Shown here piece after piece: positions 12,409-35,057 of a stretch of DNA of 64,000 nt (the first letter of the stretch is position 1; each line of letters begins with the position of its first letter). A model generated the notes under the pieces. That model did no database searches. It was not told where the DNA came from and worked only from the letters and a program-made list of their open reading frames with translations. Source of the DNA: Schmidtea polychroa (Eukaryota); assembly GCA_044892525.1 (NCBI GenBank), contig CM097885.1, positions 19,470,001 to 19,534,000 of the forward strand. Direction: 5' to 3'. Position numbers and translations under genes: made by a program.

Positions 12409-14047
12409 CTACATCTTTTCCGGAGCAAGAGGGAAATCGTTCAAATAATTATGCAACAGAATGGGGATATTTATATTGACTTCAATAGTGTAACCAATAT
12501 CCGAATTTATACACTCGTGCAATATAGATTCAAAATTATTATAAACCCAAGTAAAATCGGCATGTGGAAGTTTTTGGCTAAGAGCCCAACCATACAAATT
12601 ATTAATATCAATATATAATAATTCTGTATTCTCTGAAGTTGAAACATGATGCTTGTTAACAAATGTCAAACTACCTCGTATTCCTCCCTCATAAAAATTG
12701 AACATTTCCATATCCTGCAAAATTTCAATCGACTCTTGTAACGTCATGAGTGCTGATATCCATGACATACCAGGAATGCCATAGAAATTCAGAGGTTCAA
12801 GACCATTGTAAGCAATGACCTTTGCGCGGAATCGTTGGATATAATCAGCCAAGAGAAATACATCTAATTTAAGATAAGTTAACATGTAGTCCAAAAGATT
12901 ATTACAATTTGTTGAGCAGTAGCATATTCATCTGCCGTAACACCATCCCAAATTGGTGGCAATTCAAGAGTAGATTCTAGAATTTCTAATGAAGTAGCAA
13001 AATTATAAGGGAAAATGCCTTTACAAGTCATAATAGAACCTTCAAAAGCAGATGGTGTCAAAGAAAGATCCAACAGCCTTTGCCAAAGAACAGTTCGATA
13101 AAACGAACAGGTAATATTTTGATATAAGAGATTAATGATATATAAATAATATTCAACTCCCACGATGGAAAATAATCAAGACCAAATTTCAAAATATGAT
13201 GAAGATCATATCCCTTCAAGTTATGAAAGACTACAGGATACTGTTTTTGAATTCGGCGAGAAATATTAAATTTACTACAGTCAGCACCAAGATACTTGCC
13301 AGAGAAATGATCATGATCTCGAACTTTGCGAATAATAAATTTTTTACAAAGGTAACAGGTTGTAAAGAAATTGAAAGCACGATTTTGGGCCCAAGTCATA
13401 GTTTTTAAAGGTGTTTTGCCACGAATTTCACAATAAGGGATAAATGCTAAATGCTAAGGGATAAATGTCAGCAATCTCTTCAATTTTACGCAAAAATTTC
13501 CAAAACACAATCAGTACCAATGAAATTATAATATGATTTTGTATTTGTGTAGTTGTTAATTAGTAAAAGGCCTGCGGATATTGGATGAATTTGACGATGT
13601 ATTACATCTTTAGGTAAAAACGATTCGAAATCGGCATAAATTAAAATTGGTGGGTAATTGTATTTGCAAAATTTTCGAATTGCAAGTTTTTATTTGTAGG
13701 AAGAGTGTAAAGAATCGTTCGTATCTGATTTTTACTACACAATGTAACATATCTATCAAAATCATGTAATCGAAATTCATTAAGGCAATGAGGGCACCAA
13801 TTAATTCTTATTCTTATCGAGCAATCTATATTATTAGGATGACAATTCATTAAACGTTGCAAGTTGATAATGGCCGTATAATGATAGTTATCATCATCTT
13901 CAAGAAGTAGCAAGTACACAGGTATGCCATCAATAACTTTGGATCTATGTATAATATCAAGGTGAGGATGATGTGGCACATAAGCATCATCATTATTACT
14001 GTCATTGTCCATAATAATTACATGTTTGTATGAAAATACACTTATAG
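12409..14047 (-). pseudogene. Protein-primed family B DNA polymerase A, middle part, 3'-truncated against the TIR
   Basis: YADFES (ExoI), CYLC..RDHDHFSGKYLG (endonuclease VII-like), FHNLKGYD, YLKLDV, YIDINNLYG, FPLAPE; many disruptions. Confidence 0.92.
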
Positions 14048-17000
14048 TGTTGGGCTAGAACTGATTTCTAGACCCAAAGTTAGGAATGGGACGAAATGTG
14101 TCAGTACACAACACGCATACCCAGCATTAAGTTTACTTAAATAAAAATATATAAAACACCAAGTAAACAATGATAATAGAGAGATAATATACCCAAAAAT
14201 AAAACATCTGAATTAAAAATAAAATAAAACACGAGCAAGAAGTATTACATGAAAACTTACTCAAATATAACCAAAAGACATAAAACAACAAAAAACAAAT
14301 TCGAATAAAGGCAATTAGTAAAAATTAAAAAAGAAAATTAAAGAAAATCTTCATAAAATCTTACGTAAAGAAAATTATATCGATATTTTGAATAAAAATC
14401 CAGAACAATTCATAAAAATGGCGAAATCCATCATGACGGCCAAACGACCCAATAAAATTTATAAAAAATAAATATTTTAGTTTAAAAAATAAATATTTTA
14501 GAAAAGAAATCATAAAAAACAATTTAAAAATAAGAAATAGATTAAATTTAGCATGGAATGTTCTGGAAATGCTGAAATCCATCATGGAGGCAAATTTAAT
14601 AAAAAATAATTCGAAAATAAAATTTCAAAAATAAAAACAAAAATTCTTACTGAAAAATCGCCATTAAAATCGATAAAAATTAAAAATCGAATGTTCGAGA
14701 ATTAAAATAATCCGAATTTGTTTTACTGCATCAATGCACGCATGTATACTTACACGTCAAACAGAGGCTATATAAACTAACACATTTCGTCACTTTTGAA
14801 GCAAGAAAAATATGCTAATGTTTACTCTTATGCCAAATTTTTGATTTTGATTTTTCTGAGATTGTAGGTAAGGACGATTTCATTGTGAATTATAAATTAT
14901 TATTATTGAAACCTTGTTTTCATTATTTCTTTTTAACTATAGAAATGTAGGTTTGAGTGAGATCGTCGGTTATCATTGATTTTGGAGCGAGATCCCAGTC
15001 AACCCTGCACCTATGCACTTTATCATCGATGATTAAACAGCCCACAATGATTGCAGGTCACTGCCTGGCACGCACTTATCAATATCATTTGTTTTTTTTT
15101 TTTTTGTTTTGTTCAGGTCATTCGGAGGTCGCACCACTTCATGGTTCTGCCATGGAGTTAAGTCGATGAAATCCTCCGTCTGACTCTACCTATTTATTAT
15201 AGGTCAGTCGTAAAGGGTTGACTTACCACACAACAGTAAGGTTTGTCGTAGTGGTCACAGTGGGGCCGCGAAAGCAAACACTCCTCCCGACTTTCAATGC
15301 ATGAATAATTTACATAGTTAAAATCTACATCCAAAATCATCACAATACAATACACTAAGGTTAATAAACAGAGTAGATCTCAGACCTAAATTAATCACAA
15401 CTCTACAATTCACAATTAATGTAGACGGTTAAATATCATCAAGAACCAACTCTACCTATACGTTTGTCGAATCTAGATTTATAAATGTCCTAAATAAATT
15501 TTCTAGTAATAATGTAAAGTAAAGATTTTTTTTTCTAAATGATTGATTTAGTAGCGATAGTATTCATAAAGGTGTTCGACATGCGTACCGGCAAGACTTG
15601 GATTTTAAATTGAATAGACTCTGAACTAACTATAAAAATACAAATCGTAAACCCATAAAAGTATAAATTATCATCTCAATTGCATAAAAATATGAATTGT
15701 ACTTATAGATTTAATTTCTTCAAAATATAAATTATGATTAGTTATAAAGGTATAAATTACAAATTTAATTTTTCAAAAATATAAATTACAAATCTATATT
15801 GACGGTAAAATTATAAATTATAACTCTAAGTTGATTGTAAAAGTATAAATTATAATCTTAATTTCTTCAAAATATAAATCATGATCTTAAAAGTATAAAT
15901 TATAAAATTATATTAGCTACAAAATATAAACTATAAATTTACCTTAACTTCATAAAAATATAAATCATAAACTTAAAAATATAACTTATAAAATTATATT
16001 AGCTTTAGAAATATAAACTATAAATTGAACTTCACCAAATATAAATTATACACTTAAAAAAAAAAAAAAAAAATTATAAAATTATATTAGCTTTAAAATA
16101 TAAACCATAAAATTAGCTTCATAAAAATATAAATTATAAACTTAAAAATACAAATTATAAAATTATATTAGCTTTGGGAATATAAACTATAAATTGAACT
16201 TCACCAAATATAAATTATAAACTTAAAAGTATAAATTATAAAATTATATCAGTTCTAAAATATAAACTATAAATTTAACTTCATAAAAATATAAATTATA
16301 AAATTATATTAGCTTTAAAATATAAACTATAAATTTAACTTAACTTAGATTGCCTTTAACATCATAGTTGAAAATTTTTCATCAAAGACCCCCCATAAAC
16401 CATATAGTCATCAACTACCACCTAAATATACTAAATTAGCTTATCTTAATATACATTTAACTTATATTATATTTAAAACTATAAATTGTAAAATTTCATG
16501 AATGACCCCCCTCAAAATTATACAGTCATTACCCATTACCTAAGCATACTAAATTGACTTATTTTTAATATATATTTAACTTACATTATAATAAAAAATA
16601 TAAGTTGTAAAATTTCATGAATGACCCCCCCTCAAAATTATACAGTCATTACCCATTACCTAAGCATACTAAATTGACTTATTTTTAATATATATTTAAC
16701 TTACATTATAATAAAAAATATAAGTTGTAAAATTTCATGAATGACCCCCCTCAAAATTATACAGTCATTACCCATTACCTAAGCATTTTAAATTAACTTA
16801 TCTTAATATATATTTAACTTATATTATATTTTAAAATATAAATTGAAAATTTTCATAAATGACCCCCCTTCAAATCATGTAGCCATTAACTATTCCTTAG
16901 GTACACGAAATTATATCATCTTCGTATAGAGCTAAATTATATTTCAAATCAAACCAAAAAATAAATAATTCCATAATTTTCGCAAAAGATACCCCCATAT

Positions 17001-19159
17001 GTGGGAATCTTGTAAAAAAATAAACTTACATTTATTATTATCATTAACATTATTATTATTATCGTTATTAATATTATTATTATTATTATTACTATTATTA
17101 TTATTATTAGTATTATTACCATTAACATTACCACTCTTATCATTATTATTACTATTATCATTACTATTATTATTATATTATTAAAATAATTATCTTTATT
17201 TCAAAAAATAAAATTATAAAACCGATTATTGATTTTGGGATTCCCCTATCTCTAAATTTAGTCTCAATGGCCCTATCTTCCAATAAAATTACGGAAAATC
17301 ACTAAAATCTATTTTTAGCAACACCCCCCCCCGGAAAACGACATCAATATTATTAATTTAAATTATATCCATATATAGGTATGTGTGTATATGTATATGT
17401 ATATATACATGTGTGTGTGTATATATATATATAGGTGTGTGTGTGTATGTACATACAGATTTATAAAGCAACCTTATAAAAATACGATAACCTTCCCCCT
17501 CAAGACCCCTGTTATGTGATGGTCACAACCCCCTTAAGGTGATGGAGCGAGGTTAGAGTAGTTTACTGAAGTAATTTAGTAGAATCATTTATTGATTTAT
17601 TAGAATTATTGGATTTATTTTTAACTAAATCAAAAGAGACTAAATTTATTTTTAACTAGATCAAAAAAAAAAAAAAGAAAAACAAAGACCAAGTTTATTG
17701 ATTTCGATCATCAACTTTATTCATATAATTGTTTCTTTGAATCATAGTTATACCAAGGTCCTTCGAGCACGGTTGATGGACCATCCCAATGAAATACATT
17801 TCCTGGAGTTGGAAGACTTCTGGGTAATTCCTTATTTTCTGCTTCGTTCCTTTTGGTTCAATGACTTACATATTGATTTGACGTAATATTGTTGGATGGC
17901 CAACTATATTCCTTGCATCTCTTTTTGAGTAGTCATTGTCAGATAATTCCGCCAGGAAGATTAGTTGGTGGAGCTGACCTTGGGGCAATCAAACCTTCGT
18001 ACCTCACTGAATTATTATCAACTCGATTGCTAAGGAAATTAATGAAGTTAATTAATTAAATTAAGGAAGTTAATTACAATTTTCTCATTGGTGTTGTCAA
18101 ACGATCTTTGCTCATTCGAGATGTCATAATACATTATTGATCAATAGTAATTGTTCGGAGATTCGGCCAAATGCTGATATTCCTGAAATATTATGAAATT
18201 TTAGGATATAAATGCTTAAAATTTTAATTTATTTACATTATTATATCAAAGTTAACTAAAATCATATATTTATTCAAAATTTGTTATTTAACATTAATTA
18301 TAATTACTATAATAAAACAACGAAAATTTAAATAATGTTAAATAACTTTAACAAAACAAAAAGTAATAATGAAATCAAAATTCCATTACTTTATTTAAAT
18401 TATTAGTTACCAACTTGTTCTAGTATTTTAACATAATGAATTCAAGTATATTACGGAGTTAGTTTGGTCATTTGAGGAATATTATAAATTGAAAATTTAA
18501 GTAGATTAGAATTATTTACTCTTCATAAGAACTTTTATGATTGTAATGAATCTAAACTTCATATATTAATATTACCCATAATTTACAAGTGATATTTGGA
18601 TTATGTTAAAATAGGTTGTAAGTTAACTTAACTAAATTGAAATTTTCTTTTGATCAGGTTATCGTGGGGAATGCATGTTATCTTTATCATTTCTATTGTT
18701 TCAGTTTATTAAGTTTTTTTTTTTTTCTAATTAAATTCATTAGTCTCAGAAATTTCTTGAGGTTTGTTTAATAAACTATGGTTATGTTTCACTTAATTTA
18801 TATTCAAACATTTTAGATGTGGTGTTGTATGAACAGGCTTTAATAGAGTAATGTATGATTCCTGATGACTTATGATCGTTTGAGGATAGAGAGTTTGTAT
18901 AGGCATAGTTGAGGAAGTGATTATAATAAGGGACCTGCGTAAATCGGACATACATCTTCTAACGATAGTCCGTGAACCCATTAGAGTGCTCGACAATTAC
19001 AGTGCAAGTAGTGCGCTCACTTTTTGCGAGTACTCACCCTCTTGATACAGTACCAACGTTGATCGTTCAACGGGTATCAAGCGGTAAACAATGTTGTATC
19101 TTGGGTTACGCTGGTAACAGCACTAAAGAGCAAAATATTTGATCATCAGTAACCCACCA
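14048..19159 (+). repeat. 5' LTR (5112 bp)
   Basis: TGTTGGGCTAG..AACCCACCA; near-identical to 30033-35057. TATA-like GGCTATATAAAC at ~14766. Confidence 0.97.
15650..16900. repeat. Minisatellites inside the LTR (AT-rich AAATATAAATTATAAA units, then ~120-bp ATGACCCCCCTCAAAATT units, about 5 copies)
   Basis: Visible tandem units; the same arrays occur in the 3' LTR at ~31636-32800. Confidence 0.9.
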
Positions 19160-19167
19160 TACAAATT

Positions 19168-19185
19168 TGGGGGCTCAGCCGGGAT
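19168..19185 (+). promoter_or_regulatory. Primer-binding site, tRNA-Pro type
   Basis: TGGGGGCTCAGCCGGGAT versus the MLV tRNA-Pro PBS TGGGGGCTCGTCCGGGAT (16/18), 8 nt downstream of the LTR end. Confidence 0.85.
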
Positions 19186-20046
19186 ATTTAAACTTTCTTG
19201 GTAAAGAACCTGTAAGTAGACGGGAATGCATAGCGGTTTTTTGATCAGAAAATGAAATGCTTTATGCAAGAGTAAGAAAGATTGTTTTCTCAAATAACTA
19301 GACATGATGTGTGAATATGCGTGTATGATCAAAATGAATGTTGAATGTTGTACATGATGAATAAAATGTTTTAAATTATGTAAATATAGAAAATCGATAA
19401 AACTGGGTATGAGAATAATGTATGAGCGTTCCGTGTTGATGGGACAGAATGTTGATGGGTAAGAAATGAAATAAAAATCAAAAATAATAAAAATTGTAAA
19501 TATAAACAACTAATACTTTGGATATAAGAAAATAATAAAAAATTCAAAAATAGGGAAAAGGGGGGGATAGAAAATAACGGTATAAAGAAAAAGGGGATAA
19601 AGCATAAAACAGTGAATTGCGAAATAGAAATGGATAGATGATGCAATTACTTAAAAATAGGGGGAAGATGTAAAACTACGTTAAAGATTAAAGGGGTATA
19701 TTGAGTATTTGATAAAATGACTAAAATTATGGACAAGCTGGGATCAAAAGGGTTATGTAGACTAAGATAATAAACTAGAGGGAACGGATAAGAATGCGCG
19801 GAACATCAGTTAATGGATTGGGAGCCTAAACTAACAGGGTAAAACAGCTATTGAACTTACATAATTTGAATAAGGAAATAAATGGGTAGAGGTAAGCTAA
19901 TTAAAGGGGAATAAGAACACTTAATAAAATGCTGAATTAATAAAGTATAACTTGATGGAATTAACCGGCTACATTATAAAGAAACTTGAAAATTCGTAAA
20001 TTTAACTAACAACTCACTACAAAGATTGAATTGAAAAGCAGAGCAG

Positions 20047-20458
20047 TTGGCAAACACTCAAGAAGGACTGATCTTAAAACCAAGACCAGTAGATGATGAA
20101 TTGTGTATAATGACGAGAATTGCTACACCAAATGTGGAATTAACTACTCAAAGAGTATATCAGATTCAGAATTTACATTTAGATAAGGCCAAATTTAACA
20201 TCAAATGGCAAGAATTAAAGATAAAAATTTAAACGGTTGAAGATGCGATAAGAGAGGCGATCGATAATGAATTCAAATGTTGTGTGTGTAGAAGCAATGA
20301 GATAAAAATAATGATGGTACCTTGCGGACATCTATGTTATTGCCAAGATTGTGCATTGAAACTGAAGCGATTGTAATGTATGTGACGCAAACATGAGAGA
20401 AAGAGTAGTAGTGTACCTCCCTGAGGGAGATGTAGAAAAATTGAAGATGATGAAATGA
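20047..20458 (+). pseudogene. IAP/MIB-type RING-HC E3 ligase remnant in the LTR-element leader
   Basis: After a stop at 20230: CCVCRSNEIKIMMVPCGHLCYCQDCALKL-(1-nt frameshift)-DCNVCDANMRERVVVYL, the C3HC4 pattern of IAP-type RINGs. Confidence 0.8.
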
Positions 20459-21849
20459 ATTGCAGCCGAGTGTGAGTTAGTAAAATGTTAGTAAAACTAA
20501 TTCCATAATAGCAACCGAAAGGTATAAAACATACGTTGAACATAGACATATGAAATACACAAAAGCCGTTAAATAAATAGACAAGCAACACACAAATTAA
20601 ATTGGCGAAAGCCGTGAATTAAATACAGGACTGGCTGGGATCGCATCAAGTGTGAGCTGATCTATAAGATCAGTACGATTACCATTTTTTTCCTGTTTTT
20701 TTTTTTTTATTTTTGGCATAGAGAGACAGGACCATAAGGGGATGAGAAGCATATCGTCCCTACGATGCTTACCCGGATGGGGAAATCCTGATCACCTTGA
20801 TGAGAAGAGTATAGTAGGGCCCATCGCAAATGTTGGGGAGTTTCTGTCGAGTGACTGATCACCACTTGTGGGAAATGAACCAACGCGATTATTATATTTT
20901 TTGAATTTGGGAGACAAGGACAAACTAGAAAGGTAAATAAAAAGAAAAAGATAAAAAATAAAAATTGAAAAGGTGCACCAAAAGATAAAAATTTTAATTA
21001 TCCGAGAGCAGCTGCGGATTTGAAGAAACCGTTTTTGGACTTCAAATCGGATGATATGAATTTTCCCTAGCGAGTGATGAGGCACCCGAGTACAGCGGCT
21101 AACCACCGGACTGTAGTGTCCAGGAGATTATCAGCCAAGGGACTGATGATGCTGGATCACCCAATACAAAAACCCGGATACCCACACCGAGTATTGGGTG
21201 CAATTTTTTTTTGATTGGCTAGCGGGACTTGATACAAAAACCCGGAGGGTAGCGAGCGAGAGAGACCCAGTTACCTACACCGAGTATTAAGGAGCCCAGT
21301 GAAACGGTTGTGAGATGCGGGTCAACCGGTAAAGGACTCGTACTCAACAGGCAACCAAGATTGGACCAGTTGTGAGGCGGGAGACCGAGAGTCAACTGCA
21401 TATCCAATTTCCTTTTATCTTCACTAGTCGGGAGATCTGGTTCATCACTTTTGAGAATCAAGATCGAGGCGATTAGGCATTTCCGTGTTTTTTAAATCCT
21501 GATAGATAGGATGTTTTTTCTTCGTGATTATTGCTAGCAGGGGTCGGTACAAAACCCGGATGCCCACACCGAGTACCGATAGGCCCAGTGAAACGGCGAT
21601 GAGATTAGGGTTACCGGTATTAAACTCTTTTCAATAGGCGGCCAAGAATTGAGCTAGTTGTGAGGCCTCAGCAGATTAATAATTTGAGTAGGAGGAACCT
21701 TAAATTTTTAATTGGTCCGAAAGTCAACTGTCAACTCAATTTAATCGCGGTAGGGACGATAGTAGGTGTAAAAACTGAAGGCGTCTGGGGGTTGAAGAAA
21801 CCTCATTTAGGGCATTTGAAACCGATCAGGGACCGAAGACCGCGAATAC

Positions 21850-22480
21850 GGCGTAAAGGTGTAAAAGCCCAGGCGTCTAGGAGTCGTAAAAGACTTCAAA
21901 GATTAAAAGTATAATTAAACCGGCCGGAAGCCGATGCCGACGCGGAGGTCGAATAAACCGAAGCGTTGATGGTTGATAGTGAATTATATGGCGTAACGGT
22001 GTAAGAACCCAGGCGTCTAGGAGTCGTAAAAGACTTCAAAGATTAAAAGTATAATTAAACCGGCCGGAAGCCGATGCCGACGCGGAGGTCGAATAAACCG
22101 AAGCGTTGATGGTTGATAGTGAATTATATGGCGTAACGGTGTAAGAACCCAGGCGTCTAGGAGTCGTAAAAGACTTCAAAGTTTAAAATATGATTAAACC
22201 GGCCGGAAGCCGATGCCGACGCGGAGGTTTAATAAACCGAAGCGTTGATGGTTGATAGTGAATTATATGGCGTAATGGTGTTAAAGCCCAGGCGTCTAGG
22301 AGTCGTAAAAGACTTCATGAGATTAAAATGAGTTGATTAAACCGGCCAGAGAGCCGATGGTAATTGAATGAAAATAAATGATTTAAATGAAATAAGAGAG
22401 GTGATTAAACCAGCCAGGGAGCCGATGGTAAATAAATGTAGACGTAGAGGTCGCGCGAACCGAAGCGTCGATGATTAACT
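21850..22480 (+). repeat. 140-bp GC-richer tandem repeat (3 full copies plus degenerate ones)
   Basis: Units start at 21850, 21990, 22130 and 22269. Confidence 0.95.
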
Positions 22481-23295
22481 ATGAACGAAATAAAAGAGAT
22501 AAACGATTAAGATGAAATCGATTAAATTGACATAGATTAAGTGCGACAAAGAGGTAATGATTAAAGGAAAATTATGATAGAGCGCCGGCGCAAGAGAAAC
22601 TGAAACCAAATTTTTGAATGGGGAAAAGCGAAGAGAGATTAAGTTACTGATGAGTTTAATATGTATATGACTAATGATATATATTTTTTAATTATATAAT
22701 TGATGTTGTGATTATATGATAGATAATTGATACGACGATATAGATAATTCATACGAGTTATAGATAATTAAAAATGGACTTAAATTCAAAGGGGGGTGAG
22801 TAGCAAAAAGTAAAAGCGTACCATCAATTAGAAAAGGAACAGCGAGAGAAATAATGAGTAAAGAGTAGTATAAAATAAAGAAAATAGGGAAATAAATGAA
22901 GGGTAGGATAAAATGAATAAAATATTATGATATGTACTAGGAGTGTTAATTATTTTAGAATAAGTCAATCAATAAGTCAGAAGGAAGTCAATACAAGCCA
23001 AGAATTCAAGAGAAATAAAGAGAAATCAAAAATTCAAAAGAAAACAACTAAGGAATCAAGAGAATCAAACGAGGATAGAAGAAAGGTAAACAAAGTCAAA
23101 TTAAATAACAAGAGGAAAATTAAAGCGTTGGCCAACGAAACACAGTGAAATTCAAAAGAGATTATTAAAGCAAGAAAAATTGATAATCAAGCCAATCGAA
23201 CGAGATCGCAGAGCAAAGGAGGCTCTAGTTTATTAGGAAACGCAGGGAGACAAAGAGCCAAGAGAAACAGAAGAATCAATAAGAAACCAGCGTCA

Positions 23296-26200
23296 GTGAA
23301 AACATTATTTGAATCAGACAGCTTAACCAACGAAGGTGAAAACAGCGACGATATTAAAAGAAACGAATTATATCCGGTAACTGATATCAAACCAACAGAC
23401 AAGGAAGATAGTAGTTCAGGCATGACAAGTTCGTGTCGAGATATAATGTTAGACGGAAACCAAGTGAACAACCCGAATGGGTCAGAGTCGACATACACAC
23501 CCGAGATAAACCATGTCAACGTCAATGTTGGAGAATTTAGAGAAAGATTTCGAGGAGAACCATTCGATGGGAATATTAATGAACTAGAAACGTTTATAAA
23601 AGAATTCGAGGTATATATTACGATATGTCACTGGCCAGACATAGTCGTACGAGAGCGAATACCATTATATTTAAGAGGAAGTGCACAAGATGTATATTTA
23701 GAGGCAAAGTGTGATACAACAAAACTAAAAACATGGAAATCAATAAAGAATTTTTTAATAAAAACATTCGGTAGCAAAAGGGAAGTAAATCGCAAAATGT
23801 TGGATTTTCTGCATCGAAAGCAGAAATACAATGAGTCAAACGCACTATATGCAGGTGAATTAAGACGACTGGCAAAAGAAGCATTCGATTCAAATCAAAC
23901 AGTTCCGGAAGACAAGATAATAGCCGTATTCGTAGAGGGTATGAAAAGAAAGGACATACGAGCAACAGTGGGTTGCCGAGCGCCAGACACGCTCGAGGAA
24001 GCATTAAAAATCGCTAATAAATGTGAAAACTACTTGACTCCAGTACAAGTAGCAGCAATGGCAGCAGTACCAATAGCTACAACACCAACAACGACAACCG
24101 AAATTAATCAAACCAACAATGAAAATCTAGGAATGAATCAATTTATCTCAGAATCGCAACAGTTGTTCAAGGCGCCAAAAACGACAAATCCAGATAACAG
24201 AGGTAATATTCAATTTTACACTAATAATTTCAGGAGCAACGAGAACAATAATCGGAAGTGTAACATATGTCAACGACTAGGACATTGGAGCAACGAGTGT
24301 TATAAGACAAGGATGTGCCAAAATTGCGGTAAAAGGGGTCACACAGAAAATATATGCCGAGGACCAATGATGTCGATGAGAAGAGGAAGGACTAGAACCT
24401 GCTACAGTTGCAACCAACTTGGACATGTGGCGAGAGAATGCGCGATGAAGACAAAACATAATCAACCAAGAGCAAACGATCCAAGTCAAAATATACAAAT
24501 CAACATCATGCAGAAAATTGAACAGTTGAAAAAGATGATCCAACGGATACCAGAGGATATCCGGAAACGACCAACAAGAGAACAACAAGACCAGCAACGA
24601 ATCGAAGGGCAGAGACCACTAAACGAAAAAGCCAGAGAAATTCAAAAAAGATGGAAAAAGCGAGAAACCAACACCGGAAGAATAAATATGATGAGATTAA
24701 TGAACAAAGGGGAACCGCACACTGCGGAGCAGTGTGTTAACAAGAAAGGGAGCGATATGACCGTAATCAACGAGACAAAAGTGATAAAAGAAAATGGGTC
24801 ACATCAATTGACGGAGCAATTGACAGAACTGAGTAGCGAGGATAAAATAAAAATAATACAAGGGTTCACCAAAGAAGAAAAAGAAAAGAGACGAAGAAGA
24901 GATGAAACAGGGCACGAACCAAAAAGCAACGAGATTGTTACAAAGAATCGAATTCAGAGGGTATTACTACAAAAAATTGAAGATAGAATTAGAAGAGAAG
25001 AACCAAAATTAACGGATGAGCAAGTAAAAGAAAAAGTAAAAGACAACTGGTTCAGGAAAAATGAGTGGTTCGAAAAAGAACCAAGTAACAGAGCCAATAT
25101 AAACATGCTGAGACAAATACAGAATGATCAGACGGATCAGGAAGACGGGAAAAGTGCGATGAGTAGCCTGAGAAGTGAATTATCTCAATCAAGTGATGAA
25201 AATAATGAACAAGGAACACCTCAAAATAACGAAGAGGGTGAGAGCGACGATATGGGATCACTGATAGAAAATGACGATGAGGAAATATTCGAGGAAATTT
25301 CCGACATGGTATCGGAAAGAGAACGAAATGAGAGCTATATCAACGAACCAACATACAGAAAATGTATAAAACTGATAACTCAAGCATACCAGTGGGAAGG
25401 AGATATATTAACGGCAACATGGAAAGATTTGGTGACGAAATATAAAGGAAAATTGAAAGAAGTTGATCCAGATCAATACCAAGTAAGTATTCAACACCCT
25501 GAAACTCAGATACAGATTATTGAATTAAAAGTAACAAATACCGATAAACTGTATAATTGGGTACAACAAAAGATGGGAACAAGTCATAAAAATAAACAGC
25601 TATACGACAATGGTTATAAAGTTAAAATGAGCATACATTTAGTAGATATGATGAGATGGCCAAACGAAGTTAATATCTTAATCTTAAAGAAAAACAGAGA
25701 CAGCGAATCAGTAACGGAAATACTGAGGAAAATCCAACAGATATTCAACAATGAAGTGGAACCAGAAATAGAAAAGACTGAACAAAAGATAATGAAGGAA
25801 AATCAAATAATCTTAGTAAAACAAGCAATCGATCAAACGAAGAAATATATTAACAGATTTAGGGAAAGATGGCCGCAGCTAATGAAACAGTTTGTCAAAG
25901 ACGTACGGGATACTGAGATTATGGGATTTGAATATAAACGAGCAACGGAGTTGATATCAAAATATGGTGAATACGAGAGAATCAGATGTGAACAAGAATT
26001 ACCATGGCCATCCAACAGAAAAGTGACAATAGTAAGAGAATCACTAAAGAATAGTCATTTAAATAAACACGAAGAAATGATCAAAACATCACATGTCGAA
26101 GACGACATTTTTGGAAAAGGCCGGAGTGGAAAAAATGACAAAGACCATAACGACAAAAATGAGGAAGACGACGGGAACCATGAAAGGAACAACATAAATG

Positions 26201-27861
26201 GGAACTCAAACGAACGAGATAATGAAGAAGACAAGGAGTCAGAAGATGACGACGAAGACTTGAAGGATACTGAGGACAACTCAGACCAAAGTGAAGACAA
26301 CCAACTTAATGAAACAGAGAACGACAAACGAAAGTCCCCACTGCATAACATAGTAATGCGGAAGAATCTAAACCAGTCACTCCTACTACAAATTATCCTA
26401 ATAATACTAACGTCAATTTGCCTAACAGAAACGAAAAATACGCGAATTACGAGAGGAAATCTGAAAGAAGGCGAACTATTCATGATAAAAGTCAGCGGCA
26501 ACAACGGAAACGCGGTCGGGATATGCATCCAATTGATGGAAGGAACCGGAGTAAGTTGTGATTTTAGAACGATAACAAAAGGGAGGATTTTCAATAGTCA
26601 AAATGTAGAACCTGAATTATGCGGAGACTACAACATTTGCGAAGACATAACATCAGAAGAAAAAGAATTGGAAAGAGCTAACGAAACCGGAGTACATGTC
26701 GCAATTAAAGCTACAATGGAAGGTATCGAAATAATAGATAAAGGAAATTTGCCAACAACGCAAATATGTTTTAGAGATGACGAAGACATATGTATAACGG
26801 TGGACATGAAACGAGATCGCGAATTTTTTTGGACAAACGTAAAACCAAACACCAACATGGTGGTATGCGCAGGTACCCAGGCAATAGTGGTATGTAAAGC
26901 AGTTAAAACCGCGCAAATAAAAAGCAGGCCAAAAAGTATGGCTAGTAAACGATATCAACCAAGGATCAAACCGGCAATTAAGAAACGCCAGAAACAATCC
27001 CGTAGGGGAATGATAAGAGGACAGCACCAAACCAAGAAAAACAAAACAGTAATATGGATCAAAGATGAGAGACGAGAAGTACTAGTAAATGTCGAATTCA
27101 ACAAGAAAAGAGAAGAAGTAATCACGGTCAGAAACCAAGGTGAAGAACCAATAGTAAGAGTATGTGTACTAAACAGGACAGGAATAGTCGACTGCATAGA
27201 AACACTACTTGACAAAGGTGCAGAAGTTAAAATGACAATAGGAGAAAGAAAGGGACGATATCACATATGCGTTCTTAAAAACGGAAGCGATTTAAGTTCA
27301 TGCCAAGCAATAACCAGACAACGACCACGGATGATAAACATACTATTGACAACCAGAAAACCAAAAGAAGTGGAAAAGCCAAAAGGAAACGAACATCTAA
27401 CGGCAGAAGAAACGAAACAGTTATACCAGATGCTCAAGAAAAATAAAACACAAGAGGCAACTACAACAGAAACTAAAATGATGATAACGACAGGAAAATT
27501 CAACGAGACACTGATAACCGTTAAAATGATGTGGATCGCTAGCGCAATAATGAGTGCAGTGATAACATCAATAATAATCCAATGGATAAGAACCTCCAAA
27601 ATATGTAAACAAAAACCTAAAGGCAGAAAAAGATGGCCACAAGTGGAGAATTCCGAATATGGTATTCCAACCGAAGACCCGAATCCAGAAGAGTACGAAG
27701 CGATTGAAGATCCAAGGTCAAGCAGACTATGGACGCAAGAATTACTCAGAATACAAACCCTAGACGATTGGGTAAACGAATTTGACATATACCGGCTAAC
27801 GGATGAAAGATATGGGGGAATGCGCACATTGCATTCAGGTCCCCTGGCAACAATGGTATAA
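23296..27861 (+). CDS. gag: Gag polyprotein (capsid plus 3 CCHC knuckles) fused to acidic/coiled regions and a Cys-rich type I membrane (Env-like) module; no PR/RT/RH/IN recognised
   Basis: PFDG..FIKEFE..W..LRGSAQ and RKQKYNESNALYAGELRRLA (capsid/MHR-like); CNICQRLGHWSNEC, CQNCGKRGHTENIC, CYSCNQLGHVAREC; hydrophobic segments at ~26377 and ~27526. The same frame extends upstream to 22927 through one TGA at 23146. Confidence 0.9.
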   Translation: MKTLFESDSLTNEGENSDDIKRNELYPVTDIKPTDKEDSSSGMTSSCRDIMLDGNQVNNPNGSESTYTPEINHVNVNVGEFRERFRGEPFDGNINELETFIKEFEVYITICHWPDIVVRERIPLYLRGSAQDVYLEAKCDTTKLKTWKSIKNFLIKTFGSKREVNRKMLDFLHRKQKYNESNALYAGELRRLAKEAFDSNQTVPEDKIIAVFVEGMKRKDIRATVGCRAPDTLEEALKIANKCENYLTPVQVAAMAAVPIATTPTTTTEINQTNNENLGMNQFISESQQLFKAPKTTNPDNRGNIQFYTNNFRSNENNNRKCNICQRLGHWSNECYKTRMCQNCGKRGHTENICRGPMMSMRRGRTRTCYSCNQLGHVARECAMKTKHNQPRANDPSQNIQINIMQKIEQLKKMIQRIPEDIRKRPTREQQDQQRIEGQRPLNEKAREIQKRWKKRETNTGRINMMRLMNKGEPHTAEQCVNKKGSDMTVINETKVIKENGSHQLTEQLTELSSEDKIKIIQGFTKEEKEKRRRRDETGHEPKSNEIVTKNRIQRVLLQKIEDRIRREEPKLTDEQVKEKVKDNWFRKNEWFEKEPSNRANINMLRQIQNDQTDQEDGKSAMSSLRSELSQSSDENNEQGTPQNNEEGESDDMGSLIENDDEEIFEEISDMVSERERNESYINEPTYRKCIKLITQAYQWEGDILTATWKDLVTKYKGKLKEVDPDQYQVSIQHPETQIQIIELKVTNTDKLYNWVQQKMGTSHKNKQLYDNGYKVKMSIHLVDMMRWPNEVNILILKKNRDSESVTEILRKIQQIFNNEVEPEIEKTEQKIMKENQIILVKQAIDQTKKYINRFRERWPQLMKQFVKDVRDTEIMGFEYKRATELISKYGEYERIRCEQELPWPSNRKVTIVRESLKNSHLNKHEEMIKTSHVEDDIFGKGRSGKNDKDHNDKNEEDDGNHERNNINGNSNERDNEEDKESEDDDEDLKDTEDNSDQSEDNQLNETENDKRKSPLHNIVMRKNLNQSLLLQIILIILTSICLTETKNTRITRGNLKEGELFMIKVSGNNGNAVGICIQLMEGTGVSCDFRTITKGRIFNSQNVEPELCGDYNICEDITSEEKELERANETGVHVAIKATMEGIEIIDKGNLPTTQICFRDDEDICITVDMKRDREFFWTNVKPNTNMVVCAGTQAIVVCKAVKTAQIKSRPKSMASKRYQPRIKPAIKKRQKQSRRGMIRGQHQTKKNKTVIWIKDERREVLVNVEFNKKREEVITVRNQGEEPIVRVCVLNRTGIVDCIETLLDKGAEVKMTIGERKGRYHICVLKNGSDLSSCQAITRQRPRMINILLTTRKPKEVEKPKGNEHLTAEETKQLYQMLKKNKTQEATTTETKMMITTGKFNETLITVKMMWIASAIMSAVITSIIIQWIRTSKICKQKPKGRKRWPQVENSEYGIPTEDPNPEEYEAIEDPRSSRLWTQELLRIQTLDDWVNEFDIYRLTDERYGGMRTLHSGPLATMV

Positions 27862-28299
27862 GAAAGTGATGAGTCGATGTAAATAGTGTGTATATAAACG
27901 TGAGGGTAAAAGTAGTTTAGTAGATTAGTAATATGTTCAAAAAAAAAAAAGGTACAAAAAAAATGGGTAGGATAACTACGTATTATGAATGAATCAGAGA
28001 AACGAGGATCAAGTATATCAAACGAGGATACCACATGTTGTTGAATTGGGAAATCAACCACTAGTAAACATTAATCAGACATAAATAGTAGAAATTGATA
28101 CAAGTACAACGATAAACCAACCAAGTTAGTCAGCAGGATCAATGTGAAGAACACAATGTGAATTAATGACAAATGACAAATCATACCCAAGAATATCGGT
28201 TACGTAATTAGAATGCGTTAATGGAGAGCATCAATAGAAACTCGATATATATAACAAGAATAAAAGAGCAATAACAAATAATCGCACAATTAAAATACA

Positions 28300-29350
28300 A
28301 TAACAAACAGTTGATAAGCCAAATAAAATGGGAGGCAGGAGAAATCGGGAGATTACACGAAAACCATCAGCATGATGATATAACGAGTTAAGTTGAATGG
28401 ATAACCGGCCTACCAGGAACTGGGGAACCGGACTCAACGAGAGAGGCATAAAAGAAGGGAAAAGTAGCCCTGTAAACAAACAAAATTATAGCCAAAGTAG
28501 AAAATCCGAAATTAAACGCTATCATGGCAGAATGCCGAGGGAAAGTGGAGAGAAGTGGAGGAACAAAACTATTAATTATGAGCTGATAAGAAAATATTAG
28601 GTCAAGTCAGATGAATTCGAGGAGAGACTATTGTGTGTGGACAAAGTGTGTAGAAGATTATTAATAGGACACGTCAAACCCTATGAGGATGTAGATTATG
28701 CCATGGAGGTACTACACGAATTGTAACGAGAAAAGCAGAAATTAAAGAGAGAACCACAGCAAGAATCAGCCACATCCCAGATGACAATAATAATAAAAAT
28801 CTTAGAAGAAATAAAGCAGCGAATAATGATGACTGTCAACGAATGTCCGAGCAACTATGAAACAAAGACGCTCGAAGAAATAAAGGAAAGAATAAATAAC
28901 GCAGTCAAAGAAAAGACAATTACTCAAGATGAAATAATAAAAACATTGAGAGAGATATAGATGGAAATAATAACAACTATTGACAAAATCCCGATGAACC
29001 ATGAGACAATGACCAAAACTTTAGAAGGAATAAAGAGGAGAATATCAACTACCTTCAACGAAGACTTCGCATACTAAAATGTCCTAATAAAGATGTTCAC
29101 GGAAATCTGGAAAGGAGTAATGACGACAGTAAACAATACCCTACACACTGAATCAAATAACCTCGAAGAGGAACTCAACTCGACTGATACAATCCAACTA
29201 ATGAAAACAGTGAGCACGTTGCGAGAGATATAGAAAGAAGTGACAATCAAAACAAGGTCAGCAGAAAAAAAAAAAATTGAATGTAAAGAAAACCCAGAAT
29301 CCATAACAGTACTGATCCTGTCAGCAGCGAATCTCATGATAAATAACAAT
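28300..29350 (+). pseudogene. Probable decayed second ORF of the LTR element
   Basis: Same purine-rich coding bias as gag, with protein-like pieces (ECPSNYETKTLEEIKERINNAVKEK.., MFTEIWKGVMTTVNN) broken by stops. No family recognised. Confidence 0.4.
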
Positions 29351-30032
29351 ACTGAGCTTGATAGCCCTTAAACCCACTCAAATCCATGAAAGCACCAAAA
29401 TCTCTCAAGTTGAAAGAACAATTCCGAAGCATTCGCATTCTAATAGACGAACCAATACCCAGAGACCAAATCTATCAAATCTATCAAATCTATCTTCTAC
29501 AACCTTCAAAACTAGAACCGTCATCGAGACGAGATCCCGAACAACCGAGTGTTTAAATCCTGATATAAACCGACAATGATCTTGATATAATATGACAACG
29601 ATATTGAGTTGATTGACAATGTTCTTATTATGTGTTGACAATGATCCTGATTCGATTGACAATGATCTGAAAATGATCTAGATGTGATTTAATAATGATC
29701 CTGACATGATACAACAATGATATGATTTGATTATTATTGTGATTTGATGCCAATATTATATATTACTATGATATTATTTGAGCATAACAATTTGATTAAA
29801 TTTTGTGTGGACCGACCTTGGTCTTCTTTCTCTTCATCTGTAAACCAATCTGTAGCATGTAGCTTATCAGTAGAAACTTTTTATGTATGTGGGTATTGAG
29901 GTCACGACCCTGTAGCTCGTGGACCCAATTACATGTAGGCACTTGTAATACAGTGCAACCAATTCTGTCTAATTATATCTTGAACATTGATTAAATTGCG
30001 GGTCGCAATTTTATGGGCCCCCGAGTGTTTTA

Positions 30033-33000
30033 TGTTGGGCTAGAACTGATTTCTAGACCCAAAGTTAGGAATGGGACGAAATGTGTCAGTACACAACACG
30101 CATACCCAGCATTAAGTTTACTTAAATAAAAATATATAAAACACCAAGTAAACAATGATAATAGAGAGATAATATACCCAAAAATAAAACATCTGAATTA
30201 AAAATAAAATAAAACACGAGCAAGAAGTATTACATGAAAACTTACTCAAATATAACCAAAAGACATAAAACAACAAAAAACAAATTCGAATAAAGGCAAT
30301 TAGTAAAAATTAAAAAAGAAAATTAAAGAAAATCTTCATAAAATCTTACGTAAAGAAAATTATATCGATATTTTGAATAAAAATCCAGAACAATTCATAA
30401 AAATGGCGAAATCCATCATGACGGCCAAACGACCCAATAAAATTTATAAAAAATAAATATTTTAGTTTAAAAAATAAATATTTTAGAAAAGAAATCATAA
30501 AAAACAATTTAAAAATAAGAAATAGATTAAATTTAGCATGGAATGTTCTGGAAATGCTGAAATCCATCATGGAGGCAAATTTAATAAAAAATAATTCGAA
30601 AATAAAATTTCAAAAATAAAAACAAAAATTCTTACTGAAAAATCGCCATTAAAATCGATAAAAATTAAAAATCGAATGTTCGAGAATTAAAATAATCCGA
30701 ATTTGTTTTACTGCATCAATGCACGCATGTATACTTACACGTCAAACAGAGGCTATATAAACTAACACATTTCGTCACTTTTGAAGCAAGAAAAATATGC
30801 TAATGTTTACTCTTATGCCAAATTTTTGATTTTGATTTTTCTGAGATTGTAGGTAAGGACGATTTCATTGTGAATTATAAATTATTATTATTGAAACCTT
30901 GTTTTCATTATTTCTTTTTAACTATAGAAATGTAGGTTTGAGTGAGATCGTCGGTTATCATTGATTTTGGAGCGAGATCCCAGTCAACCCTGCACCTATG
31001 CACTTTATCATCGATGATTAAACAGCCCACAATGATTGCAGGTCACTGCCTGGCACGCACTTATCAATATCATTTGTTTTTTTTTTTTTTTGTTTTGTTC
31101 AGGTCATTCGGAGGTCGCACCACTTCATGGTTCTGCCATGGAGTTAAGTCGATGAAATCCTCCGTCTGACTCTACCTATTTATTATAGGTCAGTCGTAAA
31201 GGGTTGACTTACCACACAACAGTAAGGTTTGTCGTAGTGGTCACAGTGGGGCCGCGAAAGCAAACACTCCTCCCGACTTTCAATGCATGAATAATTTACA
31301 TAGTTAAAATCTACATCCAAAATCATCACAATACAATACACTAAGGTTAATAAACAGAGTAGATCTCAGACCTAAATTAATCACAACTCTACAATTCACA
31401 ATTAATGTAGACGGTTAAATATCATCAAGAACCAACTCTACCTATACGTTTGTCGAATCTAGATTTATAAATGTCCTAAATAAATTTTCTAGTAATAATG
31501 TAAAGTAAAGATTTTTTTTTCTAAATGATTGATTTAGTAGCGATAGTATTCATAAAGGTGTTCGACATGCGTACCGGCAAGACTTGGATTTTAAATTGAA
31601 TAGACTCTGAACTAACTATAAAAATACAAATCGTAAACCCATAAAAGTATAAATTATCATCTCAATTGCATAAAAATATGAATTGTACTTATAGATTTAA
31701 TTTCTTCAAAATATAAATTATGATTAGTTATAAAGGTATAAATTACAAATTTAATTTTTCAAAAATATAAATTACAAATCTATATTGACGGTAAAATTAT
31801 AAATTATAACTCTAAGTTGATTGTAAAAGTATAAATTATAATCTTAATTTCTTCAAAATATAAATCATGATCTTAAAAGTATAAATTATAAAATTATATT
31901 AGCTACAAAATATAAACTATAAATTTACCTTAACTTCATAAAAATATAAATCATAAACTTAAAAATATAACTTATAAAATTATATTAGCTTTAAAATATA
32001 AACCATAAAATTAGCTTCATAAAAATATAAATTATAAACTTAAAAATACAAATTATAAAATTATATTAGCTTTGGGAATATAAACTATAAATTGAACTTC
32101 ACCAAATATAAATTATAAACTTAAAAGTATAAATTATAAAATTATATCAGTTCTAAAATATAAACTATAAATTTAACTTCATAAAAATATAAATTATAAA
32201 ATTATATTAGCTTTAAAATATAAACTATAAATTTAACTTAACTTAGATTGCCTTTAACATCATAGTTGAAAATTTTTCATCAAAGACCCCCCATAAACCA
32301 TATAGTCATCAACTACCACCTAAATATACTAAATTAGCTTATCTTAATATACATTTAACTTATATTATATTTAAAACTATAAATTGTAAAATTTCATGAA
32401 TGACCCCCCTCAAAATTATACAGTCATTACCCATTACCTAAGCATACTAAATTGACTTATTTTTAATATATATTTAACTTACATTATAATAAAAAATATA
32501 AGTTGTAAAATTTCATGAATGACCCCCCCTCAAAATTATACAGTCATTACCCATTACCTAAGCATACTAAATTGACTTATTTTTAATATATATTTAACTT
32601 ACATTATAATAAAAAATATAAGTTGTAAAATTTCATGAATGACCCCCCTCAAAATTATACAGTCATTACCCATTACCTAAGCATTTTAAATTAACTTATC
32701 TTAATATATATTTAACTTATATTATATTTTAAAATATAAATTGAAAATTTTCATAAATGACCCCCCTTCAAATCATGTAGCCATTAACTATTCCTTAGGT
32801 ACACGAAATTATATCATCTTCGTATAGAGCTAAATTATATTTCAAATCAAACCAAAAAATAAATAATTCCATAATTTTCGCAAAAGATACCCCCATATGT
32901 GGGAATCTTGTAAAAAAATAAACTTACATTTATTATTATCATTAACATTATTATTATTATCGTTATTAATATTATTATTATTATTATTACTATTATTATT

Positions 33001-35057
33001 ATTATTAGTATTATTACCATTAACATTACCACTCTTATCATTATTATTACTATTATCATTACTATTATTATTATATTATTAAAATAATTATCTTTATTTC
33101 AAAAAATAAAATTATAAAACCGATTATTGATTTTGGGATTCCCCTATCTCTAAATTTAGTCTCAATGGCCCTATCTTCCAATAAAATTACGGAAAATCAC
33201 TAAAATCTATTTTTAGCAACACCCCCCCCCGGAAAACGACATCAATATTATTAATTTAAATTATATCCATATATAGGTATGTGTGTATATGTATATGTAT
33301 ATATACATGTGTGTGTGTATATATATATATAGGTGTGTGTGTGTATGTACATACAGATTTATAAAGCAACCTTATAAAAATACGATAACCTTCCCCCTCA
33401 AGACCCCTGTTATGTGATGGTCACAACCCCCTTAAGGTGATGGAGCGAGGTTAGAGTAGTTTACTGAAGTAATTTAGTAGAATCATTTATTGATTTATTA
33501 GAATTATTGGATTTATTTTTAACTAAATCAAAAGAGACTAAATTTATTTTTAACTAGATCAAAAAAAAAAAAAGAAAAACAAAGACCAAGTTTATTGATT
33601 TCGATCATCAACTTTATTCATATAATTGTTTCTTTGAATCATAGTTATACCAAGGTCCTTCGAGCACGGTTGATGGACCATCCCAATGAAATACATTTCC
33701 TGGAGTTGGAAGACTTCTGGGTAATTCCTTATTTTCTGCTTCGTTCCTTTTGGTTCAATGACTTACATATTGATTTGACGTAATATTGTTGGATGGCCAA
33801 CTATATTCCTTGCATCTCTTTTTGAGTAGTCATTGTCAGATAATTCCGCCAGGAAGATTAGTTGGTGGAGCTGACCTTGGGGCAATCAAACCTTCGTACC
33901 TCACTGAATTATTATCAACTCGATTGCTAAGGAAATTAATGAAGTTAATTAATTAAATTAAGGAAGTTAATTACAATTTTCTCATTGGTGTTGTCAAACG
34001 ATCTTTGCTCATTCGAGATGTCATAATACATTATTGATCAATAGTAATTGTTCGGAGATTCGGCCAAATGCTGATATTCCTGAAATATTATGAAATTTTA
34101 GGATATAAATGCTTAAAATTTTAATTTATTTACATTATTATATCAAAGTTAACTAAAATCATATATTTATTCAAAATTTGTTATTTAACATTAATTATAA
34201 TTACTATAATAAAACAACGAAAATTTAAATAATGTTAAATAACTTTAACAAAACAAAAAGTAATAATGAAATCAAAATTCCATTACTTTATTTAAATTAT
34301 TAGTTACCAACTTGTTCTAGTATTTTAACATAATGAATTCAAGTATATTACGGAGTTAGTTTGGTCATTTGAGGAATATTATAAATTGAAAATTTAAGTA
34401 GATTAGAATTATTTACTCTTCATAAGAACTTTTATGATTGTAATGAATCTAAACTTCATATATTAATATTACCCATAATTTACAAGTGATATTTGGATTA
34501 TGTTAAAATAGGTTGTAAGTTAACTTAACTAAATTGAAATTTTCTTTTGATCAGGTTATCGTGGGGAATGCATGTTATCTTTATCATTTCTATTGTTTCA
34601 GTTTATTAAGTTTTTTTTTTTTTTCTAATTAAATTCATTAGTCTCAGAAATTTCTTGAGGTTTGTTTAATAAACTATGGTTATGTTTCACTTAATTTATA
34701 TTCAAACATTTTAGATGTGGTGTTGTATGAACAGGCTTTAATAGAGTAATGTATGATTCCTGATGACTTATGATCGTTTGAGGATAGAGAGTTTGTATAG
34801 GCATAGTTGAGGAAGTGATTATAATAAGGGACCTGCGTAAATCGGACATACATCTTCTAACGATAGTCCGTGAACCCATTAGAGTGCTCGACAATTACAG
34901 TGCAAGTAGTGCGCTCACTTTTTGCGAGTACTCACCCTCTTGATACAGTACCAACGTTGATCGTTCAACGGGTATCAAGCGGTAAACAATGTTGTATCTT
35001 GGGTTACGCTGGTAACAGCACTAAAGAGCAAAATATTTGATCATCAGTAACCCACCA
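30033..35057 (+). repeat. 3' LTR (5025 bp)
   Basis: Copy of 14048-19159, differing visibly by one ~88-bp minisatellite indel and homopolymer lengths. Confidence 0.97.

Follow-up and report, generated by a model that had tools for sequence, protein, structure and literature searches.

Packaging and dimer-linkage regions of retroviruses are among the closest described systems for the sequence analyzed here, and the comparison made below includes those of MLV, with its palindromes and repeated GACG loops, of HIV-1 (SL1), and of MMTV (PMC516450, PMC8096270). As far as the excerpted sources go, retroviral dimer linkages hold repeated loops together with palindromes (PMC516450), and the Gag site of MMTV is a purine loop (PMC8096270). 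In LTR retrotransposons, palindromes drive the dimerization of Ty1 (PMC6844567, in excerpt), and a review of Ty1 and Ty3 states, in the part cited, that packaging sequences in this class of elements are not precisely defined (PMC4974528). Repeated loops are also found in MPMV's constitutive transport element (CTE), described in the cited part as a stem-loop with two internal loops recruiting NXF1 (PMC7551171). In pararetroviruses, autonomous and dependent partners carry a noncoding region that, according to the excerpt used, has been homogenized by recombination (PMC5491270). Burro and GYPSM1, giant gypsy-like elements of planarians, have been described in terms of their proteins and tandem repeats, and leader RNA structure does not figure in the portion of that account drawn on here (PMC6431247).

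The window, a 64,000-nt stretch of the Schmidtea polychroa genome (contig CM097885.1, positions 19,470,001 to 19,534,000), contains an element of this planarian type, with three copies of a short RNA unit in its leader. We conclude that the three units are a real, selected, and repeated RNA stem-loop of the element leader. Positions given below are those of the window, and all features of the element lie on its + strand.

The host element

The element is an intact LTR insertion, and its 4-kb leader contains the units. The 5′ LTR (14048–19159, TG...CA) is preceded by a target-site duplication of 4 bp (14044–14047) and is 97.8% identical to the 3′ LTR (30033–35057), after which the duplication recurs. 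The primer-binding site (PBS) at 19168–19185 is presumably directed to tRNA-Pro; a tRNA scan of the window returned none. By eye, no clear polypurine tract is apparent at 29990–30033, before the 3′ LTR, and the stretch 29778–30098 is 84% identical to a full-length element. An upstream RING-finger ORF (20035–20376) is interrupted by a stop in the window copy and is open for 160 aa in a full-length element. Downstream, an open frame of 1,570 aa (23149–27861) begins with Gag, in which Pfam identifies retrotrans_gag (PF03732) and CCHC zinc knuckles (PF00098) as in a Burro-like Gag, and runs in frame into a C-terminal polyprotein part, without MATH, env, PR, RT, RH, or IN.

Many relatives have instead an open frame of 4,791 aa with MATH, a fusion glycoprotein, PR, RT, RH, IN, and ankyrin, and downstream of it come TRAF and BIR/RING ORFs. 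It is thus the full-length relatives with the same leader, and not the window copy, that show the Burro-like polyprotein and accessory ORFs. Their architecture is that described for Burro and GYPSM1 in the portion of that work consulted, with Gag knuckles, MATH, env between gag and pol, PR, RT, RH, IN, and ankyrin, and the likeness extends to the BIR/RING and TRAF ORFs and the 5-kb LTRs (PMC6431247). The window copy differs from these elements in the deletion of MATH, env, and pol. Since its frame matches the polyprotein only over the first ~950 residues, at 71%, and the last ~600, at 55%, the window copy is, judged from its sequence, a pol-less, non-autonomous in-frame deletion derivative of a Burro-type giant gypsy element.

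The subfamily represented by 14048–35057 is young, high-copy, and non-autonomous, with one open frame of 1,570 aa. Its best 30 matching copies are 97–100% alike in the flank, and some family copies lie ~16 kb apart, as tandem arrays would. Two loci first read as a sister family (L147 and L148) turned out to be rearranged copies without the leader. Elsewhere in the window, mobile remnants are found at 650–2512, 12409–12927, 40158–41291, and 48616–49737, comprising a gypsy piece with chromodomain/integrase, two Maverick-like PolB pieces, and a DUF659 frame, which we take to be hAT-like.

Three copies of a stem-loop unit

An earlier note on this DNA had described three copies of a core closed by different stems, and its coordinates and sequences agree with the window as written. 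A pattern search of the 64 kb yields exactly these three, on the + strand only. The variable part measures 5, 30, and 5 nt in units 1, 2, and 3, and the 30-nt part folds into the hairpin that had been proposed. In the predicted fold, each unit is closed by a stem of 8 bp and comprises an A/C-rich internal loop (7×1 in units 1 and 2, 6×1 in unit 3), an inner 3-bp helix CGG/CCG, which the note did not mention, and a variable top.

Unit 1 (21160–21198) has a short terminal loop above the CGG/CCG helix. The claim that the closing stems pair is borne out; the 10-bp stem assigned to unit 1 is not, as pairing across 21158–21200 holds for the window copy, but 21159:21199 is A.C in 65 of 97 elements, so that the stem is 8 bp family-wide and all three units have an 8-bp closing stem. 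Unit 2 (21228–21291) combines the same core with a different 8-bp stem and the inserted 30-nt hairpin, its stem being likely extended by GGG/CCC at 21224–21297, and unit 3 (21543–21580) has a third 8-bp stem, likely extended at 21540–21586. Units 2 and 3 each belong to a module of ~135–160 nt that is present in duplicate (21218–21666; copies 21218–21378 and 21533–21666), in which a palindromic hexamer comes first and the unit is followed by a second hairpin common to both copies. The hairpin 3′ of unit 2 is long (21306–21356) and carries a palindromic hexamer in its loop (21325–21330); its paralog 3′ of unit 3 (21595–21643) keeps the loop palindrome (21613–21618) on a changed stem and, taken alone, is weakly predicted (z +1.2; −0.2 for a full-length copy). 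By eye, 21028–21040 and 21486–21497 could pair with the A-rich loop and the CGG of the core, which may be an alternative fold or chance in U-rich linkers.

The exact core has 1,180 matches in the genome, against 0 for a reversed control, and all of the 100 matches listed of these 1,180 are units of the window element's family. A covariance model of units 1 and 3, the kind of check that the note had called for, finds no fourth copy in the window; its next match is unit 1 on the minus strand (E 0.022), and the remaining ones have E 0.15 or worse.

Pairing is kept while the stems change

The earlier proposal of a selected RNA structure in the leader is sustained by the way in which the stems change pairwise between units and by the fact that variants shared between elements mostly keep pairing. 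While the cores (23–24 letters) are alike letter for letter bar one A, the outer five pairs differ between the units at 5, 7, and 8 of 10 letters, and 15 of 15 cells pair. Own cells hold a Watson–Crick pair in 13 of 15 cases and cross-unit cells in 10 of 30 (p 0.0012); once wobble pairs are counted too, the figures become 15 of 15 and 19 of 30. For randomly placed changes, the probability of leaving all five pairs intact comes to 0.025 between units 1 and 2 and to 0.014 between units 2 and 3 when 60% are transitions, and to 0.071 and 0.048, respectively, when 80% are; both comparisons use unit 2. When units 1 and 3 are aligned in five rows, four pairs are changed on both sides; 1 of 500 shuffles reaches this count, a fraction that is not a probability.

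Within the family, 101 hand-picked loci were aligned and 97 were kept, four that covered <600 nt being dropped. The three closing stems are paired in 2,318 of 2,328 cells across these 97 elements. For 17 helices, chosen from the fold and the paralog comparison, variant pair types present in at least two elements keep pairing in 11 cases and break it in 4, as opposed to 13 and 29 for singletons (p 0.006). The four commonest pair-keeping variants toggle between Watson–Crick and G.U on the + strand; such toggling is strand-specific and thus points to the sense RNA rather than to DNA. The two loop palindromes have 0 shared variants over 12 columns in the 97 elements, and pairs of the palindrome hairpin are broken by one variant in 6 elements and by another in 3. 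Double changes within the family occur at only two pairs of a 31-row fold, each in one copy. Inside the motif, covariation is provided by the three units as paralogs of one another and by a single double change among family members, which does not yet make a deep alignment. Folding z-scores are modest, −3.5, −1.5, and −1.0 for units 1, 2, and 3, and −1.2 for the 641-nt region, where 2 of 20 shuffles are as good.

A second organism, organism B, was compared through contigs of four sequencing runs aligned at 80% likeness. Its contigs (run X5, RNA only by guess) cover unit 1 and leave 21230–21649 without cover. Changes are found in the 5′ arm at 21157, 21159, 21160, and 21161 in 4–5 contigs, together with a 1-nt gap in the variable loop, and no core change is listed, three rows being hidden. 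The contig pieces end at 21194–21196, where the partners of the changed letters begin. These data fit a conserved core on a changed stem.

A block shared with the full-length subfamily

The units are embedded in a block (21000–22560) that is near-identical between the pol-less and full-length subfamilies, at 92–100% per 100 nt over 21000–21899 and 86–95%, gaps aside, to ~22560. Compared with one full-length element, the 250-nt bins at 21048–21797 are 94–97% identical, the highest of all alignable bins over 14048–30100 (several LTR bins do not align), the others being 59–90%. For Gag residues 126–300 in the same comparison, 154 of 175 match, and only 36 of 54 fourfold sites do. Forty other loci show a mean identity of 93–97% over 21000–21799 versus 64–82% in the upstream leader, and the stretch adjoining gag is among the least conserved between subfamilies (54–83%). 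In unrooted trees of 48 rows (L158 dropped), which recent exchange and extreme constraint fit alike, the short subfamily is set off by a branch of 0.021 for the block and of 0.40 for the flank. Whether by exchange or by constraint, the dependent subfamily matches its helper in this block more than anywhere else. In the excerpt available, the non-autonomous pararetroviruses show the same pattern, a noncoding block of the dependent partner that is closer to the helper's than its genes are; these are plant systems, and the likeness considered here is one of pattern (PMC5491270).

The G+C content of the block is 0.46, versus 0.29–0.38 in the flanks. Tandem 140-nt repeats at 21846–22317 are predicted to fold as hairpins, and a stable hairpin (z −3.3) lies at the 5′ edge (21002–21056), with an 8-nt palindrome at 21008.

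Palindromes and a second Burro lineage

The same genome contains a second Burro lineage (20 loci), which shares with the window family the PBS, the RING ORF, and an island at 20779–20889. Within this island lies the strongest evidence for dimerization, a hexamer at 20817–20822 that is 340 nt upstream of unit 1 and outside the motif. Its anchor was found in 116 of 121 loci, and the hexamer is palindromic in 114 of these 116 copies, in three forms (34, 60, and 20 copies) that differ in their middle letters and extend across subfamilies and the second lineage, with two single exceptions; organism B shows the second form. Intramolecular folding is not open to a self-complementary hexamer, so that pairing between two molecules is likely, and the hexamer is a candidate dimer-initiation sequence. 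The adjacent hairpin (20823–20889), with an invariant palindromic apical loop (20856–20861), is likewise shared with the second lineage. In 13 rows, 11 of them distinct and all related, 6 of its 23 pairs are changed on both sides, and 99.6% of cells are paired, versus 19–50% in slid controls. Together, hexamer and hairpin (20817–20889) are the best candidate for a dimer-initiation site, and they are older than the three-unit motif.

The motif itself is found by pattern in 0 of the 20 second-lineage loci, and the covariance model, run on 16 of the 20, gives a best E of 1.3. Where the window family has the three-unit block, the second lineage has its own tandem hairpin array (L171:4161–4599; L164:4030–4330), formed by repeats of ~73–80 nt with paired hairpins whose stems differ and whose A-rich loops are similar. 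Given that the motif is absent from the second lineage and the island is shared, the three-unit motif is a lineage-specific module on an older core. Both lineages also have repeated AGATAA-type words upstream of gag (22719–22779), which could be GATA-factor sites of an internal promoter or enhancer.

Searches beyond the family

The earlier remark that the family is not recognized holds against Rfam. Its covariance models give three weak matches over 18000–25000 of the window (E 3.2–4.8), none on the motif, and none at E up to 1 on three further loci (L164, L171, and L203). C/D-box-like words occur at 21074 and 21143, with no Rfam snoRNA match there. Genome-wide patterns for differently closed cores yield 0 matches, four candidates being family copies with one change. 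A relaxed pattern gives 32 matches versus 26 for its control, and the 30 inspected are family copies, chance, or the coding stretch of an unrelated repeat. In viral contigs, 23 matches have no consistent closing stem in MFE folds and are attributed to chance. In metagenome contigs, a strict pattern finds 0, and the 78 matches to a loose one have closing stems of 2–6 bp, none of 8. Thus, the viral and metagenome contigs hold no convincing match outside the window element's family. No paper on Burro leader structure was found by a search of a library that carries few subscription journals. The host element and the kind of signal are already known, and the motif and its arrangement appear to be undescribed.

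Packaging and dimer linkage as a probable function

Four functions had been proposed for the motif, and packaging is the one that gains specific support, from the helper-matched block and the palindromes, as a candidate role. We give a probability of about 0.55 to the reading that the units are repeated protein-binding loops within the packaging and dimer-linkage region of the element. The leader hairpins would fold in the genomic RNA, and palindromes would then pair between two RNA molecules, starting dimer formation. Zinc knuckles of Gag could bind the repeated loops, several copies providing avidity, and the dimer would be drawn into particles. The pol-less subfamily would need particles with the enzymes of the full-length element and would be selected to keep a block matched to that of the helper, renewed most likely by template switching between co-packaged RNAs. 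That palindromes link genomes, Gag binds the loops, and the pol-less subfamily keeps the helper version for co-packaging, all jointly, we likewise hold slightly better than even.

The position is that of a packaging signal, with the units between the PBS and gag on the strand of the genomic RNA, as told from G.U toggling, in an element with a CCHC Gag, and conserved self-complementary sequences are present in the three-form hexamer and the loop palindromes. A fixed loop on a free stem supports a packaging role, as does the tandem hairpin array of the second lineage at the same place, to the extent that sequence comparison can speak to function. With the retroviral regions, in the cited portions, the leader shares the PBS–gag position, palindromes in or beside hairpins, and repeated stem-loops with identical loops (PMC516450, PMC8096270). 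Unlike in MLV, there is no GACG within the three units or the module, and the loops are A/C-rich 7×1 internal ones; unlike retroviral packaging regions, the region lies 1.6–2.5 kb after the PBS and is without Rfam likeness. With PAL1 and PAL2 of Ty1, as excerpted, the leader has in common the palindromes of an LTR retrotransposon, a proposed genome linkage, and Gag binding nearby (PMC6844567, PMC4974528), whereas Ty1, a copia element, has short signals close to the 5′ end and no repeated internal-loop module.

Several observations count against packaging. A Gag of its own is encoded by the short subfamily. The second lineage is devoid of the motif, which is therefore no universal signal of Burro elements, and the best evidence for dimerization lies outside the motif. 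The unit loops are A/C-rich, unlike described Gag sites, many of which are purine- or G-rich, and packaging signals are usually nearer the PBS than 1.8 kb, the distance at which the block begins. The near-identical block could stem from recent recombination near a dimer site, with the loops unselected, and the folding z-scores of units 2 and 3 and the region are weak, with variants that break pairs in the palindrome hairpin.

Alternative explanations

A host export factor bound by the repeated internal loops, so that unspliced RNA leaves the nucleus, is a possible but unlikely function. Its design would be that of the MPMV CTE as described in the excerpted source, and the MPMV/SRV element likewise has repeated internal loops on unspliced retroelement RNA, but the window has three separate 5′-leader hairpins rather than one long hairpin, and AAGACA, the hexamer named there for the gamma-CTE, is absent from 20700–22560 (PMC7551171). 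A genomic RNA of ~20–30 kb would need export, and fixed loops on free stems suit such a site; however, a host-factor site need not match a helper at 94–97%, and the palindromes are left without explanation. A translation element, either an IRES, whose structure abuts the start codon and allows cap-independent initiation, or a ribosome shunt, by which Gag would be translated past an upstream ORF and a lengthy leader, is quite doubtful. The 107 ATGs between the PBS and the Gag frame, the 160-aa RING ORF that precedes the block in full-length elements, and the higher G+C content of the block than of its flanks would suit it, yet the end of unit 3 lies 1.57 kb upstream of the Gag frame and 1.84 kb upstream of the first ATG in that frame, the stretch adjoining gag is poorly conserved between subfamilies, and splicing or an internal promoter could supply the Gag mRNA instead.

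The ribozyme suggested in the earlier note gains no support and is very improbable. Invariant loop letters on covarying stems within ~40 nt are what a small self-cleaving RNA might show, minimal ribozymes span 31–35 nt in the cited account (PMC11620745), and a new class is conceivable in that no Rfam family fits. However, no Rfam ribozyme matches at E up to 5 (window 18000–25000) or 1 (L164, L171, and L203), and the loop is 7×1 or 6×1, unlike the 5×6 loop with CA cleavage of TS-like (lantern) ribozymes as excerpted (PMC11620745). Cut at three places between the PBS and gag, the genomic RNA would be severed in elements whose 4,791-aa frames are still open and of which near-identical copies exist. 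The hammerhead core consists of CUGANGA and GAAA joined by stems I–III, with a UH site; words resembling it occur at 21143 and 21301/21590, but by eye there is no stem III with UH, and Rfam gives no match. That the hairpin has no function of its own, being a duplicated passenger dragged by recombination at the neighboring dimer site or a DNA-level repeat, is improbable. The block is young-looking (mean identity 96%), the covariation comes mainly from three paralogs of a motif absent from the second lineage, and columns with a shared variant number 2 of 35 in the core loop versus 65 of 428 elsewhere, which are small numbers. Against this, the arms are changed at 5–8 of 10 letters with all pairs kept and the core unchanged, G.U toggling is strand-specific, and the second organism keeps unit 1, with 5′-arm changes listed and none listed in the core. 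A bolder reading, which we regard as rather unlikely, makes the 40-nt unit a new small-RNA class, either a self-cleaving ribozyme that is inactive in packaged genomes or an export or translation module of a new kind, present three times in an env-bearing giant retroelement with cassette exchange between helper and parasite.

Implications

Self-cleavage or RNA export by the unit, if real, would place it in a new class of small RNAs, which the evidence does not favor. On the packaging and dimer-linkage reading, natural variation marks candidate signals to the nucleotide in an animal gypsy element, namely the 40-nt repeated loop, the palindromic loops of two hairpins, and a hexamer that varies and yet stays palindromic. 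The block common to the pol-less subfamily and its helper would then map out naturally which parts have to match in trans.
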